A DNA stretch of 64,000 nt from Kiritimatiellia bacterium. Its GTDB lineage: Bacteria; Verrucomicrobiota; Kiritimatiellia; RFP12; UBA1067. How positions within the stretch are numbered: the stretch's first letter is position 1; every line of letters starts with the position of its first letter. Under the pieces are notes generated by a model, which worked only from the letters and a program-made list of their open reading frames with translations, did not search any database and had not been told where the DNA came from. Location: assembly GCA_050949565.1 (NCBI GenBank), contig JBMNFY010000010.1, positions 1-64,000 on the forward strand, given 5' to 3'. Shown here one piece after another: positions 1 through 6,611 of this stretch. The translations under genes were made by a program, and so were the position numbers.

Positions 1-1
1 C

Positions 2-3000
2 CTTTTCCCCACGCACGTGGGGATGATCCGGACGTTGTGCGCCTCTGTCGATGGACGCCCATGCTTTTCCCCACGCACGTGGGGATGATCCGGGGCTTTT
101 TTTCAGGGGGTAAAATGTGGAAACCTTTTCCCCACGCACGTGGGGATGATCCGCTCTGATGTTGGGTATTGTGGGTGTGGCGTGTCTTTTCCCCACGCAC
201 GTGGGGATGATCCGATGAATATTCGTCGAAACGTGACATCCGCGACCTTTTCCCCACGCACGTGGGGATGATCCGAGAGGGGGCTTGCCCAGGAAGCTAC
301 ATTGCGGCTTTTCCCCACGCACGTGGGGATGATCCGAGCAACGATTTACAGATCGGAATCCGGTCACACTTTTCCCCACGCACGTGGGGATGATCCGTGC
401 GGCGGCACGCATTGGCGGCAATATGCGAGCTTTTCCCCACGCACGTGGGGATGATCCGCGAATCAGCACGATCTACGCTCGCGCGGCCATCTTTTCCCCA
501 CGCACGTGGGGATGATCCGGTTTGAGCGGCCTTGTTCCAGTCCTCATCTTCCTTTTCCCCACGCACGTGGGGATGATCCGCCAAACGGCTCCCCTGCGTG
601 CGATACATGATACTTTTCCCCACGCACGTGGGGATGATCCGCAAACCACGGGAAACATTTATCAACCGGAGACCTTTTCCCCACGCACGTGGGGATGATC
701 CGGTGAGGGTTGACAAAACGTGGCACAAGAAGTCCTTTTCCCCACGCACGTGGGGATGATCCGTTTTGTCCCGAACGGTACATTGACGGTCTTTGCTTTT
801 CCCCACGCACGTGGGGATGATCCGGATAGATGACGCGTCGTGCATTCGCAACCATGCTTTTCCCCACGCACGTGGGGATGATCCGGCGATGGATGCAATC
901 TAAAAATTACGCATTTACTTTTCCCCACGCACGTGGGGATGATCCGGTCGGCGAGCTCTGGGCTGCGTCATACGGCCACTTTTCCCCACGCACGTGGGGA
1001 TGATCCGCTTCTCGCCCGTGTTTGAACAGCAGGTTGTATCTTTTCCCCACGCACGTGGGGATGATCCGCCTATGCCGTGGTTTTTAAATTCGGGTTTACA
1101 CTTTTCCCCACGCACGTGGGGATGATCCGTAAAAGCTGTCCGGCGCAGTATTGACGCCATACTTTTCCCCACGCACGTGGGGATGATCCGTATATTTCTA
1201 AAACTCTTCAGGAGCGCCCGGACTTTTCCCCACGCACGTGGGGATGATCCGCCCAAGGTGGGTTTATCATGAAAAGGAAAGGACTTTTCCCCACGCACGT
1301 GGGGATGATCCGCCCACACTATCGGATTCATCATCAGATAAACTCTTTTCCCCACGCACGTGGGGATGATCCGATCGAGTCGGACGGCGGGCGTGGCGCG
1401 TGGATCTTTTCCCCACGCACGTGGGGATGATCCGTGTTGCCTTGTATTTTGGCGCCTGTTAGCTGCCTTTTCCCCACGCACGTGGGGATGATCCGTAACA
1501 CCCTGTTGCTTTTGGAAATCCTCTAGACTTTTCCTCACGCACGTGGGGATGATCCGCCTGAACCGCTCTTTGAAAACAAGGAAACGGGCTTTTCCCCACG
1601 CACGTGGGGATGATCCGGCACGCCAACACCAGAACCGCCGCGACAACAGCTTTTCCCCACGCACGTGGGGATGATCCGTTCTGGGCGAACAGGTAGCTGT
1701 CGGCGGGCAACTTTTCCCCACGCACGTGGGGATGATCCGACCGCATAGCAGCGCCAGACCGCCTGCGCCGCCTTTTCCCCACGCACGTGGGGATGATCCG
1801 AACCCGACGCGAGGCGCCCGCGACAACGGGCTCTTTTCCCCACGCACGTGGGGATGATCCGGCGTGAAATGCCCCCGAGCCCGCCAAACAGATCTTTTCC
1901 CCACGCACGTGGGGATGATCCGACCAGATGCTTAACGCATCGCAGCGGCTCAAGCTTTTCCCCACGCACGTGGGGATGATCCGACAAAAACTGACTGCAA
2001 ACGCATGATATGACCCTTTTCCCCACGCACGTGGGGATGATCCTGACAGGGTATGCGAGACCTTGCATGTGGAGACCTTTTCCCCACGCACGTGGGGATG
2101 ATCCGCGTACCTATGGTGCTGGCGTGGCCGACTGCTGCTTTTCCCCACGCACGTGGGGATGATCCGGTTACCGTTCGCTGTTTTGCTGACAGTCTGCGCT
2201 TTTCCCCACGCACGTGGGGATGATCCGCCAACATCAGAGACCTTGCTTGCTGTCCGCACCTTTTCCCCACGCACGTGGGGATGATCCGCAGCTGAAAAGG
2301 CGCGTGAAGCTCGCGCGCGCCTTTTCCCCACGCACGTGGGGATGATCCGGTCCTTATGCGCCTCTTCGATTGATGCCCATGCTTTTCCCCACGCACGTGG
2401 GGATGATCCGTGTTCAACCAAGGCGCGCGCCCCGGCGTAACTCTTTTCCCCACGCACGTGGGGATGATCCGCTCGCCCTCTGCGGCAAGGTCGGCACGGG
2501 CTTCTTTTCCCCACGCACGTGGGGATGATCCGCGGGTGATGGATTTATGAGTGCGAATCTACGTCTTTTCCCCACGCACGTGGGGATGATCCGTGAATGG
2601 ACACCATCGACAGATACGAGATTCTCTTTTCCCCACGCACGTGGGGATGATCCGGCGCTCACACTTCGCGCGCGGGCGCGTGGGGCCTTTTCCCCACGCA
2701 CGTGGGGATGATCCGAAGGCGAGAATGTTGAGGAAGCTATGAGTGCCCTTTTCCCCACGCACGTGGGGATGATCCGAATGAAAACCAACATCACCGACAC
2801 CCCGAGGCCTTTTCCCCACGCACGTGGGGATGATCCGTCCACAATTGATGCATTAAACAATGCAGCCACCTTTTCCCCACGCACGTGGGGATGATCCGGC
2901 ATGAATGTACTGCCGACCGCGTATGGAATGCTTTTCCCCACGCACGTGGGGATGATCCGGCCGTTGCCGGTTTCAGGGCGAGCGGTATTTCCTTTTCCCC

Positions 3001-4545
3001 ACGCACGTGGGGATGATCCGCGGGTGATGGATTTATGAGTGCGAAATCGCGTCTTTTCCCCACGCACGTGGGGATGATCCGGCGAGCACGCTATCCACGT
3101 CCGTCGTGGGCGCCTTTTCCCCACGCACGTGGGGATGATCCGGAAATCATCCGGTTCTCCAAGGCAACAGTAGACTTTTCCCCACGCACGTGGGGATGAT
3201 CCGTTGCAGCGATTTAGATCGGGCAGCAAACTAGGCTTTTCCCCACGCACGTGGGGATGATCCGAGCGACCTCTTGATTCAGATCGAGGAACAACGCTTT
3301 TCCCCACGCACGTGGGGATGATCCGAAACCCGTTACTACGTAGTAACAAAAAAAGGACTTTTCCCCACGCACGTGGGGATGATCCATCATGCGTATTTAT
3401 TGGGGTTTTTCGCAATTACTTTTCCCCACGCACGTGGGGATGATCCGACGCGGAACGATACGCAGTGGGGCCCGGGAGTCTTTTCCCCACGCACGTGGGG
3501 ATGATCCGGCTTAGTGTCAGCGAGGCGGCCCGCATAATGGCTTTTCCCCACGCACGTGGGGATGATCCGCAACGCGCCACGACTTTTCTTCCATCCCGGT
3601 ACTTTTTCCCACGCACGTGGGGATGATCCGTCACGGCAAGAAGCGAGTTCCACGGATCCCTGCTTTTCCCCACGCACGTGGGGATGATCCTAAAATAGGG
3701 GTATTTGGTGGTGAAAAAAAATTCTTTTCCCCACGCACGTGGGGATGATCCGGCCACCCGTGGCGGAGCTGCGGCGGCCACAGTCTTTTCCCCACGCACG
3801 TGGGGATGATCCGGAAATGGCATACACCGAAATCCCGAACGCCAACTTTTCCCCACGCACGTGGGGATGATCCGCCGCCTCTGTATAGCCGTTGGTTGTG
3901 CCGCGCCTTTTCCCCACGCACGTGGGGATGATCCGCGCTACGGGGCGGCGGCGAGGGCGGCGGCGGACTTTTCCCCACGCACGTGGGGATGATCCGGTAA
4001 ATCAGGGCGCATGCCGCGCCCTGCGAAACTTTTCCCCACGCACGTGGGGATGATCCGAAAGGATTACGAGAACGGGAAGCACGGCAGCGCTTTTCCCCAC
4101 GCACGTGGGGATGATCCGTTCAACGCGAGCGTCCGCGCCGCGTTGAACCCCTTTTCCCCACGCACGTGGGGATGATCCGACGTTTACTGCGCCCGAACCC
4201 ACAACAACCCCCTTTTCCCCACGCACGTGGGGATGATCCGACATGACGATTTCCGGCACAAGTTTTGTGAATCTTTTCCCCACGCACGTGGGGATGATCC
4301 GACGCCTACCGCCTTGTGCGCCCTTTGATGGACCTTTTCCCCACGCACGTGGGGATGATCCGCGGGCGACGGGATTATGCGCGTGCGAAATCGCCTTTTC
4401 CCCACGCACGTGGGGATGATCCGATTGTTCACTGTTCCAGCCGGGAAGGCGGATTCTTTTCCCCACGCACGTGGGGATGATCCGTCGTTGATGTGAACAA
4501 TAACCGTAGTACCCCTCTTTTCCCCACGCACGTGGGGATGATCCG
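2..4545 (+). CRISPR. Type I-E-like CRISPR array, main block: 75 repeats CTTTTCCCCACGCACGTGGGGATGATCCG (29 bp), spacers 32 bp (first one 33), truncated at left window edge
   Basis: Strict 61-bp periodicity (starts 2, 64, 125 ... 4517). Layout 5 nt + CCCC-N8-GGGG + 8 nt matches the E. coli I-E repeat GTGTTCCCCGCGCCAGCGGGGATAAACCG. Point variants at 1528 and 3602. No leader or cas genes in window. Confidence 0.98.
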
Positions 4546-4574
4546 AGGCAAACCAGCACCTTCAGTTTTGTTAT

Positions 4575-4786
4575 CCCCTTCTCCCCACGCACGTGGGGAT
4601 ACCATTGGGTTTCGTGCGCCCCACCGTAACCGAAACCCCTTCTCCCCACGCACGTGGGGATACCCGCGGATGGCTTCGACCAGATTTGTCCATCTCCCCC
4701 TTCTCCCCACGCACGTGGGGATACCAGCATGACGCGGTTGAAGTTATGCACAAAATTCCCCTTCTCCCCACGCACGTGGGGATACC
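4575..4786. CRISPR. Terminal block of 4 variant repeats CCCCTTCTCCCCACGCACGTGGGGATACC with three 32-bp spacers
   Basis: Identical 29-mers start at 4575, 4636, 4697 and 4758. Same hairpin core and 61-bp phase as the main block, but boundaries shifted 3 nt left. Confidence 0.93.
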
Positions 4787-5007
4787 CCGAGCCCGCTGCC
4801 CGATCCTCTTCCAGCGGGAGAGGGGAGGCCATCAGAGTTGACGGTTGGTTTGATTGTGAACAGTCAATAAAATCGGCGGATTCGAATGAATCGATTCTTT
4901 CGATTGTTTAACTCCCAAATCCTCACTGAATCGCGTTTGCCTGTTGTCCCGAGCGGCGGTAAACAGTAAGATGGGCGTCGAAAGGAATCGTTTCCCGCGA
5001 GGGATGG

Positions 5008-5754
5008 ATGAAGGAGCGTTTGGATACATTGCTGGTGCAGGCGGGGCTGGCCGAAAGTAAGGAGCAGGCCCAACGTCTGGTTCTGGCGGGTGAGGTGCGC
5101 GTGGCGGGTCAGCGCGCGACGAAGCCGGGACATAAGGTGGATGCGTCTGCACCGCTTGCCGTGGATGCGCGGCCACGTTTTGTGAGCCGTGGCGGCGAGA
5201 AGTTGGAAGGAGCCTTTGCAGCGTTTCCGGAATTCGATGTTACGGGTAGGGTCTGCCTGGATGTCGGTGCCTCGACCGGTGGCTTCACCGACTGCCTGCT
5301 TCAGCACGGCGCGGCGCGCGTCATTGCGGTGGATGTCGGTAAGGGGCAGTTGCACTGGAAACTGCGGCAGGATCCGCGGGTGACCGTCATCGAGGGTTTT
5401 AACGCGCGTTATCTGCAACCGTCAGATTTGCCCGAACAACCGCAGGCCGGGGTGACCGATGTCTCGTTCATTTCGCTGAAGCTGATTCTGCCGCCGATGG
5501 TCGATGTCTTGCCGCCGGGCGGTGAGTTGGTGTCGCTGATCAAGCCGCAGTTTGAAGCGGGACGCGCGAAGGTGCCGGGCGGTGTGGTTCGCGATCCGGC
5601 GGTACACGAAGAAGTGGTGGCGGAGATCAAGGCGTTTGGTACGGAGACGCTCGGTCTCGAGTGGCTGGGATGTGTAGAATCCCCGCTGCGCGGTCCGGAG
5701 GGCAATATCGAGTTTCTGGCGTGGTGGCGCAAAGGAGAGACAAAAGAGGCATGA
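5008..5754 (+). CDS. tlyA: TlyA family rRNA (cytidine-2'-O)-methyltransferase
   Basis: N-terminal S4 domain (KERLDTLLVQAGL), FVSRGGEKL, LDVGASTGGFTDCLLQ, DVSFISL, LIKPQFE, GNIEFL. Confidence 0.96.
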   Translation: MKERLDTLLVQAGLAESKEQAQRLVLAGEVRVAGQRATKPGHKVDASAPLAVDARPRFVSRGGEKLEGAFAAFPEFDVTGRVCLDVGASTGGFTDCLLQHGAARVIAVDVGKGQLHWKLRQDPRVTVIEGFNARYLQPSDLPEQPQAGVTDVSFISLKLILPPMVDVLPPGGELVSLIKPQFEAGRAKVPGGVVRDPAVHEEVVAEIKAFGTETLGLEWLGCVESPLRGPEGNIEFLAWWRKGETKEA

Positions 5755-6611
5755 AGACAATCGGTATCATTGCGAATCTCGAGAAGAATCGGGCGGTCGA
5801 GGCGATCCGGAATGTCTCCGATCTGGCGGACGGCATGGGGTTCACGGTTTACGCCGGAGAGTGTGCGGCAGCGCTTTGCCCGCCGGAACGTATCTGTCCG
5901 GTGGCGGAGTTTGCCGCGCGCGGCGTCGAGGCGGTCGTGGTGCTGGGCGGCGACGGAACGATGCTGGACGCGGCGCACCGTACGGCTGGGCAGAATCTGC
6001 CGCTGATGGGGCTGAACATCGGCTCGCTCGGATTTCTCACCAGCGTTGAAGAGCAGTACTTCGCCGTGGCGTTGCAGCAGTTGCGCGAGGGACGTTTCAC
6101 GGTGAGCCTGCGCGCTGCGTTGGCAATGGAAGTGGTTCGCCGCGACGGCGAACGGTTCTCGTTGCCGGATGCACTGAACGATGTGGTCGTAAGCCGTGGC
6201 GCGTCGGGCCATGCGGTAGAGATTGATCTGGCGCTTGATGAGAAAGCGGTGACGCGCGTGCTGTGCGACGGCATTATTGTCTCGACGCCGACCGGTAGCA
6301 CGGCCTATTCGCTCTCGGCGGGCGGGCCGATTTTGCTGCCTGACACACCTGCAACGGTTATCAGTATGATCTCACCGCATACGCTGACCTACCGGCCGCT
6401 GGTGATCCGCGATACGGTGCGGGTGTCGTTGCATGCGGCAACCTGTGTGGTGCCGATGATCGTGAGTTCGGATGGACGCGACAGCAAGCCGCTGCAGCGC
6501 GGCGATACGGTGCGTATCGCGCGCAGTCCGCGCAGTGTGCCGTTGATTGAGTTGCATGGCTATGACCCGTGTGATGTCTTGCGCCGCAAGCTGGGGTGGG
6601 GGAGCCGATGA
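5751..6611 (+). CDS. nadK: NAD(+) kinase
   Basis: LGGDGTML, GSLGFL, ALNDVVV, DGIIVSTPTGSTAYSLSAGGP. ATG overlaps the tlyA stop (ATGA); tlyA-nadK linkage is common. Confidence 0.95.
   Translation: MKTIGIIANLEKNRAVEAIRNVSDLADGMGFTVYAGECAAALCPPERICPVAEFAARGVEAVVVLGGDGTMLDAAHRTAGQNLPLMGLNIGSLGFLTSVEEQYFAVALQQLREGRFTVSLRAALAMEVVRRDGERFSLPDALNDVVVSRGASGHAVEIDLALDEKAVTRVLCDGIIVSTPTGSTAYSLSAGGPILLPDTPATVISMISPHTLTYRPLVIRDTVRVSLHAATCVVPMIVSSDGRDSKPLQRGDTVRIARSPRSVPLIELHGYDPCDVLRRKLGWGSR

Follow-up and report, generated by a model that had tools for sequence, protein, structure and literature searches.

In the type I-E CRISPR system of Escherichia coli, the integration of a new spacer involves a first cut at the leader-repeat junction, the two inverted-repeat arms of the repeat serve as essential anchors, and the leader-distal cut falls 8 nucleotides (nt) away from where the second inverted-repeat motif ends, regardless of the sequence found at that position (Goren et al. 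2016, PMC5039180). The subject of the present analysis is a locus in which such distances appear in mirrored order, namely the trailer end of a type I-E array located at the start of a stretch of 64,000 nt (referred to throughout as the window; positions 1 to 64,000 of contig JBMNFY010000010.1, assembly GCA_050949565.1) from a Kiritimatiellia bacterium. In this array, 75 repeats of ordinary layout are followed by a block of four identical repeats, the borders of which lie 3 nt further to the left. The explanation that we consider probable is that this block is an extension of the array's own trailer, generated in situ and in reverse register, in which the terminal repeat (T) was copied three times by type I-E Cas1-Cas2 bound backwards.

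Several described phenomena come close to this arrangement. Orientation errors of adaptation are known from the E. coli I-E system, in which 'flipped' spacers arise when the prespacer is turned, leaving normal repeat borders and a spacer of wrong polarity; here, it is the whole integration complex that appears to have been turned, and the borders move by 3 nt. Over-expressed E. coli Cas1-Cas2 has reportedly been seen, in work by Nivala et al. in 2018, to integrate off target at genomic pseudo-repeats, giving rise to 'neo-CRISPR' loci. As far as that account goes, such loci share with the present one an integration that does not depend on the leader, in which a target of repeat length is duplicated and a small array can be seeded, but the target here would be a genuine repeat belonging to the array itself, used in reverse, and in wild populations. 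In type II-A systems of Streptococcus, ectopic integration likewise adds a spacer-repeat unit away from the leader-proximal repeat (PMC8047081). Register and orientation are kept in the reported events, whereas the present block has mirrored borders and lies at the trailer-most repeat. CRISPR arrays as a rule carry changes in the 3' part of their last repeat (Garrett 2021 review, PMC8047081), and T resembles such degenerate terminal repeats in being last in the leader-defined orientation and in differing mainly in its 3' part; what sets it apart is that this terminal repeat appears to have been copied three times itself, with its register displaced and a new spacer separating each copy from the next. 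Finally, the two-ruler model derived for E. coli shares with this locus the ruler distance (on the - strand) and the anchoring arms, which in this case are identical on both strands, but it was derived for leader-directed, forward integration, (PMC5039180), and no description of mirrored ruler use was found in the literature examined. Degenerate terminal repeats, hairpin-anchored rulers, ectopic or off-target integration and orientation errors of adaptation are known parts. The use in nature of a genuine array repeat in the mirrored sense, leaving a reverse-register block at the trailer, was not found described in full-text searches of the literature.

The window opens inside the array, at the start of contig C10, one of the 21 contigs that make up the genome. 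The hairpin core of the repeat is found in an array context once more in this genome, at the extreme end of contig C6 and in the same orientation, next to a single cas operon whose order on the + strand, by Pfam matches, is cas3, cse1, a gene for a HEAT-repeat protein, cse2, cas6e, cas7, cas5, cas1, cas2 and a gene of the RNase_H_2 family; there follow a non-coding stretch of approximately 90 nt, corresponding to the leader, and the first repeat. The matches obtained for this operon (PF18019/PF22590, PF09481, PF09485, PF08798 for Cas6e, PF09344 for Cas7e, PF09704, PF01867, and PF09707 for Cas2) correspond to the complete type I-E gene set (cas3, cse1/cas8e, cse2, cas7e, cas5e, cas6e, cas1 and cas2), and the repeat has the features of this type: 29 nt with a central stem of 7 base pairs (bp), a 4-nt loop and an 8-nt 3' part from which the 5' handle of the CRISPR RNA is formed, separated by 32-nt spacers. 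G003 and G009, both relatives, show the same succession of genes, leader and repeat, with a conserved leader, and so does the more distant G015. Since the cas operon, the leader and the first repeat all lie on the + strand of C6, the array is of type I-E and is read on the + strand, and position 4786, at the end of the shifted block, is its trailer end.

Two genes of this operon deserve mention in their own right. The 319-residue HEAT/Armadillo-repeat protein encoded between cse1 and cse2 (L001:14028-14987, on contig C6) is an unusual insert for a type I-E operon. The RNase_H_2 family gene (PF13482) lies between cas2 and the leader (L001:19038-19841), a position that is kept in G003, G009 and G015 (L004, L006 and L008); its product may be a stand-alone exonuclease that trims prespacers.

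The layout of the array was established through a scan for the 16-nt hairpin core, CCCCACGCACGTGGGG, which occurs 79 times between positions 1 and 4786. Seventy-five of these cores belong to the main repeat, CTTTTCCCCACGCACGTGGGGATGATCCG, in which 5 nt precede the core and 8 nt follow it (5+16+8), and in all 75 cases the core is followed by ATGATCC; this main array occupies positions 1 to 4545 on the + strand, runs off the left end of window and contig, carries 32-nt spacers (one of 33 nt), and ends with a last main-type repeat at 4517-4545. The remaining four cores lie in a 29-nt repeat of layout 8+16+5, CCCCTTCTCCCCACGCACGTGGGGATACC, whose copies V1 (4575-4603), V2 (4636-4664), V3 (4697-4725) and V4 (4758-4786), all on the + strand, are identical to one another. 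Between them lie three 32-nt spacers, S1 (4604-4635), S2 (4665-4696) and S3 (4726-4757), the last of which adjoins, through V4, the trailer flank. Core-to-core distances are 61 nt in 77 of the 78 intervals, the switch from main to shifted repeats included, the exception being the first interval, of 62 nt. The preliminary description of this stretch, which had reported 75 repeats followed by four mirrored ones in an unbroken 61-nt phase, with a junction interval of only 29 nt (4546-4574), is borne out in all these respects, and the interval measures 32 nt (4546-4577, on the + strand) when it is read in the main register.

That the unit itself has moved, and not merely its description, follows from the bases at its two edges. 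The triplet preceding CTTCT is CCC in 4/4 shifted repeats, whereas the triplets that follow ATACC all differ (ATT, CGC, AGC and CCG), which indicates that the conserved unit truly lies 3 nt to the left, in the form 8+16+5. CCC occupies the last three positions of main spacers at a frequency of approximately 0.02 (228 spacers), and its presence in all four cases is therefore not due to chance: the triplet was copied together with the unit, and not acquired four times. The block thus consists of four identical 29-nt units around three unrelated 32-nt inserts, the pattern of a repeat-length target duplication around a spacer-length insert, and the distances from core to border are 5 nt and 8 nt, as in the main repeat but in mirrored order. 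Among seven type I-E arrays examined for comparison, from four plasmid-borne loci (two of Thermus, one of Streptomyces and one of Acetobacter), the 5+16+8 layout was found in 7/7; no mirrored block was present at these four loci, a sample too small to yield a frequency.

The origin of the unit can be traced to the terminal repeat. Read in the main register, the last copy of the core belongs to a repeat, T (CTTCTCCCCACGCACGTGGGGATACCCCG, 4761-4789, + strand), that takes the form CTTCT-hairpin-ATACCCCG, is identical to the main repeat at 25/29 positions, with mismatches at position 4 and at positions 24-26, and ends in the canonical CCG. T is an ordinary degenerate terminal repeat, such as can also be seen in the I-E arrays of Acetobacter and Thermus brockianus, and the junction interval is a normal 32-nt spacer, J1, which happens to end in CCC. 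The shifted unit corresponds to the last 3 nt of this preceding spacer plus the first 26 nt of T, while the leftover CCG of T (4787-4789) is present only once, beside the flank and outside of the shifted unit. In two metagenome contigs (L013 and L015, described below), a repeat of the T kind is preceded by AGC or CGC, and not by CCC, which shows that T natively has its left border at CTTCT, in line with the main register.

A favoured, although still conditional, course of events can be proposed on this basis. The stem arms of the repeat, TCCCCAC and GTGGGGA, form a 7-bp stem that reads alike on both strands and folds with -12.8 kcal/mol on either, and the two senses of the repeat are told apart solely by the 4-nt loop and the outer flanks; type I-E Cas1-Cas2 could thus bind T in the opposite sense, permitted by the strand symmetry of these arms. 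The short side of the complex, 5 nt from the core, would then lie on the flank side, with a cut between ATACC and CCG, and the ruler side, comprising 7 nt plus the PAM-derived base (PAM, protospacer-adjacent motif), would lie on the spacer side, 3 nt into the preceding spacer. Gap repair would duplicate CCCCTTCT-core-ATACC and leave a new 32-nt spacer beside the flank, and three rounds of this process would generate S1, the oldest of the three, then S2, then S3, each a flipped insertion to be read, presumably, on the - strand. On the - strand, the hairpin arm and the left border of the shifted unit are indeed separated by the ruler distance, and the shift of 3 nt equals 8 minus 5, the value expected from mirroring the two cut distances about the hairpin. 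It was correctly noted beforehand that, on the - strand, the unit adopts a 5+8 layout ending in G. In addition, the position in V2-V4 that mirrors base 29 is C on the + strand (G on the -) in 3/3 cases, an observation that fits flipped integration without discriminating it from other readings, and the composition of spacer ends could not serve as a marker of orientation, main spacers being without positional bias and the test hence without power.

Further information comes from related strains. The repeat was searched for in one genome per species, 185,579 species genomes in all, and in metagenome contigs. Among the species genomes, the variant repeat matched once, in the congener G004, where it lies at a contig start beside an identical flank. 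Eight metagenome loci were recovered, of which six carry this array and two are unrelated (L011, with a solitary repeat at an unrelated locus, and L014, described below); the right flank is identical in 5/6 array-carrying contigs, the sixth, L016, ending inside the third shifted repeat. These contigs form a series of variants with 1, 2, 3 or 4 repeats of the trailer kind. L017 and L018 carry J1, a single terminal repeat and the flank; L012 and L016 carry J1 and three shifted repeats that enclose S1 and S2; and the window holds four shifted repeats, with the additional spacer S3 beside the flank. L013 and L015 display other 32-nt junction spacers, ending in AGC and CGC, followed by CTTCT-core-ATACC, S2, one full shifted repeat and the flank, structures that may be explained by deletions that kept the downstream repeat. 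S1 is therefore common to L012 and L016, and S2 to L012, L013, L015 and L016, while S3 is missing from the other contigs that reach the flank (L012, L013, L015, L017 and L018). The main spacers are wholly different between strains that share the trailer block, as is usual for arrays that have a trailer in common and vary at the leader end.

In DNA runs X1 and X2, contig depths are 11.6 and 9.3 over 4517-4725, 3.4 and 5 over the S3 unit (4696-4787), and 12.7 and 13.7 over the flank, per-contig figures that provide a mere hint of polymorphism, and in RNA-library runs X15 and X16 contigs join 4696 directly to 4758, which corresponds to the three-repeat form. These figures suggest that close relatives are polymorphic for the spacer nearest the flank. 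Trailer-most, or 'anchor', spacers are normally the most conserved of an array (Lam and Ye 2019). A misassembly at approximately 4546-4575, which the preliminary description had named as a possible source of the pattern, can be set aside, since the junction is bridged in the independent contigs L012, L016, L017 and L018 as well as in contigs of the two DNA runs.

A number of observations weigh against flipped integration and have to be set beside the evidence in its favour. Flipped integration does not by itself explain why three events would fall on this one repeat, and mirrored units are absent from the internal repeats of the window (0/75). The flank is unlike the leader: the reverse complement of 4787-4940 aligns to the true leader with a score of 16, compared to 14.9 +/- 2.1 (maximum 24) for shuffled sequences, hence with no significant likeness, and a scan of the flank revealed neither a promoter-like site nor a terminator, in agreement with the earlier remark that the right flank is not obviously leader-like. 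The series of 1, 3 and 4 repeats and the polymorphism of S3 fit recombinational loss between identical repeats as well as they fit gain, and L013 and L015 call for an extra deletion step in which the downstream repeat is kept; such retention of the downstream repeat is the usual outcome of deletions (Garrett 2021, PMC8047081). Most importantly, searches of IMG/VR with seeds of 22-24 nt from S1, S2, S3 and J1 produced no match and no protospacer, and the data consequently do not fix the side on which the PAM lies, which would be the decisive point. Free-standing arrays of the unit GGTATCCCCACGTGCGTGGGGAGAAGGGG, next to a leader and cas genes of their own, would speak against flipped integration.

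The explanation closest to the one preferred here takes the same events further: the trailer flank could be a cryptic second entry from which the array grows at its other end, flipped integration being polar, always on the flank side, and, as the polymorphism of S3 would suggest, ongoing in present-day digester populations; transcription of the reversed units might start in the flank, and their products might function with a different 5' handle. We regard this as doubtful; if two-ended growth did occur, other arrays with symmetric hairpins should also show mirrored blocks at their trailers, where they would distort orientation calls and PAM inference. It is also conceivable, if unlikely, that the block is what is left of an older array in the + orientation, built by an earlier integrase with borders 8 nt before and 5 nt after the hairpin, and that the present main repeat arose later, or came with a new cas-leader module, and was stacked on top. 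Blocks of variant repeats are indeed common at the old ends of arrays, L018 holds another block with a different loop further up its array, and strains without a main spacer in common still share the trailer block. The forward ruler of type I-E, however, places the distal cut 8 nt from the hairpin motif, and not 5 (PMC5039180), and an older array predicts neither the CCG that follows the last repeat, nor a junction spacer of 32 nt in the main register, nor the copies preceded by AGC and CGC in L013 and L015. No array of such a register was found elsewhere in the species-genome and metagenome scans, and all seven comparator arrays are of the 5+16+8 form. Were the block merely an old repeat variant, the finding would be an ordinary one.

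The preliminary description had favoured a different origin, in which the block was built from the opposite side or by a different Cas1-Cas2 and then fused, tail to tail, or captured; this would make it an independent array in opposite orientation with its own leader in the right flank. The - strand layout of the unit, 5 nt, hairpin and 8 nt ending in G, would agree with such a fusion, as would the AT-rich character of part of the flank (4840-4930), and true convergent mini-arrays do exist, as exemplified by L014. The repeat DNA, nevertheless, is not inverted: the loop reads GCAC on the + strand in the shifted repeats, as it does in the main repeat, and GTGC in the truly inverted repeat of L014, and identity to the main repeat is 25/29 in the forward sense as opposed to 19/29 for the reverse complement of the shifted unit. 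A fusion would moreover require three coincidences, namely the exact 61-nt phase, the CCG after the last unit, and CTTCT and AT flanks like those of the main repeat. The flank is unlike the leader, although a leader of an unrelated kind is conceivable, and the search for arrays of reversed repeats and for a second matching cas1 returned the repeat only at this trailer, in the scanned collections, and no second I-E cas1. Uninverted repeat DNA, the CCG end, a 32-nt J1, an unbroken phase, the lack of such an array elsewhere and a remaining cas1 of type I-C thus leave fusion or capture without support, and we consider it very improbable. Of the original proposal, construction from the opposite side stands, in the sense that the mirrored layout is best explained by integration from the trailer flank, while a different Cas1-Cas2 is not supported, the other cas1 of the genome belonging to the I-C system with 33-nt repeats. 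Least probable of all is an origin independent of Cas proteins, through slippage or unequal recombination of the 61-nt unit with later divergence or exchange of spacers, or else an assembly artefact. Slippage from repeat to repeat is the accepted route by which arrays undergo deletions and duplications (Garrett 2021, PMC8047081), and duplicated spacers are seen in G003 and L015, but a duplication would have copied the spacers too, while here three unrelated spacers accompany four identical repeats, and the structure recurs in independent assemblies and runs.

Some more specific candidates were also rejected. Had T been the site of forward ectopic integration, the copies would read CTTCT...ATACCCCG, with CCG constant among them, a pattern that is absent. 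The I-C integrase does not qualify as the maker of the block, its unit sizes (33-nt repeats, 66-67-nt period) being different from the 29-nt repeats and 32-nt spacers found here, and a collapse of the array followed by repopulation from T would yield T-type repeats in the main register, none of which is present.

If flipped integration is indeed the origin of the block, it would represent a natural, population-level record, and a rare trace, of Cas1-Cas2 having used a genuine repeat the wrong way round. It would also imply that the hairpin-anchored rulers of type I-E work symmetrically in wild bacteria, with the leader context alone enforcing direction, and that the oldest part of an array need not be its 'anchor' end. 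Tools that orient arrays, date spacers by their position or infer PAMs would misread such blocks, for which a 3-nt register shift at the trailer could serve as a simple screening signature.

The consequences for CRISPR RNA (crRNA) production can be predicted for each strand. From a + strand precursor, cleavage by Cas6e at the base of the hairpin would leave a handle composed of AUACC and three spacer bases, attached to a guide of the wrong polarity; a - strand reading would yield AGAAGGGG as the handle and would require that the flank contain a promoter. Neither predicted handle equals that of the main array, AUGAUCCG, and the three units are for this reason most likely inert, by-products of off-pathway integration that would have been kept because the trailer end is rarely purged. 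Exclusive detection of + strand species with the 5' end AUACCNNN would indicate inert units, while - strand crRNAs starting with AGAAGGGG would point to a functional second entry. Contigs from RNA libraries, which are unstranded, span the block and the flank, but neither transcription nor its direction follows from them.

Shorter seeds (17-18 nt) of S1-S3 and J1 led, in IMG/VR, to 20 loci, none of which extends past the seed (18-22 of 32 positions matched), and a main-spacer seed led to one viral contig with a partial match of 20 nt, the whole 34-kb record holding no other convincing match to a spacer. When the block was compared by BLAST with 401 genomes of the class, repeat matches and short chance matches alone were identified, the best of them in G178 (28/32, with flanks that do not match), and matches of the same kind came from 221 genomes of the family. 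A phage collection gave no match, a plasmid collection gave I-E repeats only, and spacers of the window had no match in their own genome.

In 224 of 230 contexts, base 29 of the main repeat is G; the other 6 have A, T or C at this position, and the base changes with the spacer. In E. coli, the last base of the repeat is derived from the AAG PAM. An AAG-type PAM is suggested here by two cases only, both of them indirect, involving contig L016 and the junction spacer of L015. The latter overlaps the spacer located at window position 2533, and the overlap places AAG directly before one protospacer. In L016 (1-1190), a long coding region runs straight into a main repeat, without a leader, and AAG precedes the 32 nt that lie before the repeat; the assembly of this left part is probably chimeric, joined through a spacer and the target of that spacer. 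The spacers at 2533-2564, 3021-3052 and 4363-4394, together with the junction spacer of L015, are directed at one target region, in slightly differing versions and offsets, which looks as though one mobile element had been the object of repeated or primed acquisition.

The trailer flank proper extends from 4790 to 4933 and has no strand of its own; it is followed, as a neighbour outside of the feature, by a gene for an S4 and FtsJ methyltransferase (TlyA-like, 5008-5754, + strand). In the close relative G002 (contig C1), the 147 nt from 4787 to 4933 are missing upstream of the same gene: the two genomes are 97% identical from window position 4934 onwards, with unrelated DNA upstream in G002. 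The lack of the flank in G002 points to the CRISPR-Cas island, including its 147-nt trailer flank, as an insertion beside the TlyA-like gene that is particular to this lineage. The flank may supply a bend or a binding site. It also harbors a palindromic element of approximately 45 nt (4864-4909, core TCGAATGAATCGATTCTTTCGA), of which partial copies occur elsewhere in this genome and in congeners.

L014 (1-400), a contig of another organism, carries an I-E array and, some 170 nt further on, two repeats in opposite orientation with one spacer. In L018, a leader-side block of repeats (5700-6250) has a different loop (CCCCACACGCGTGGGG); the array also has two single-base repeat variants, and one over-long spacer of approximately 47 nt lies just before J1. 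Tandem duplications of spacer-repeat units, with identical spacers in succession, are present in L004 (G003:C276) and in L015. The second CRISPR-Cas system of the genome, of type I-C, lies on contig C8 at approximately 398300-403400 (L044), with a Cas1 match at 347 bits and 33-nt repeats in a period of 66-67 nt, and its array holds a block of repeats with a one-base variant, CCCCACGCGGGG in place of CCCCATGCGGGG.

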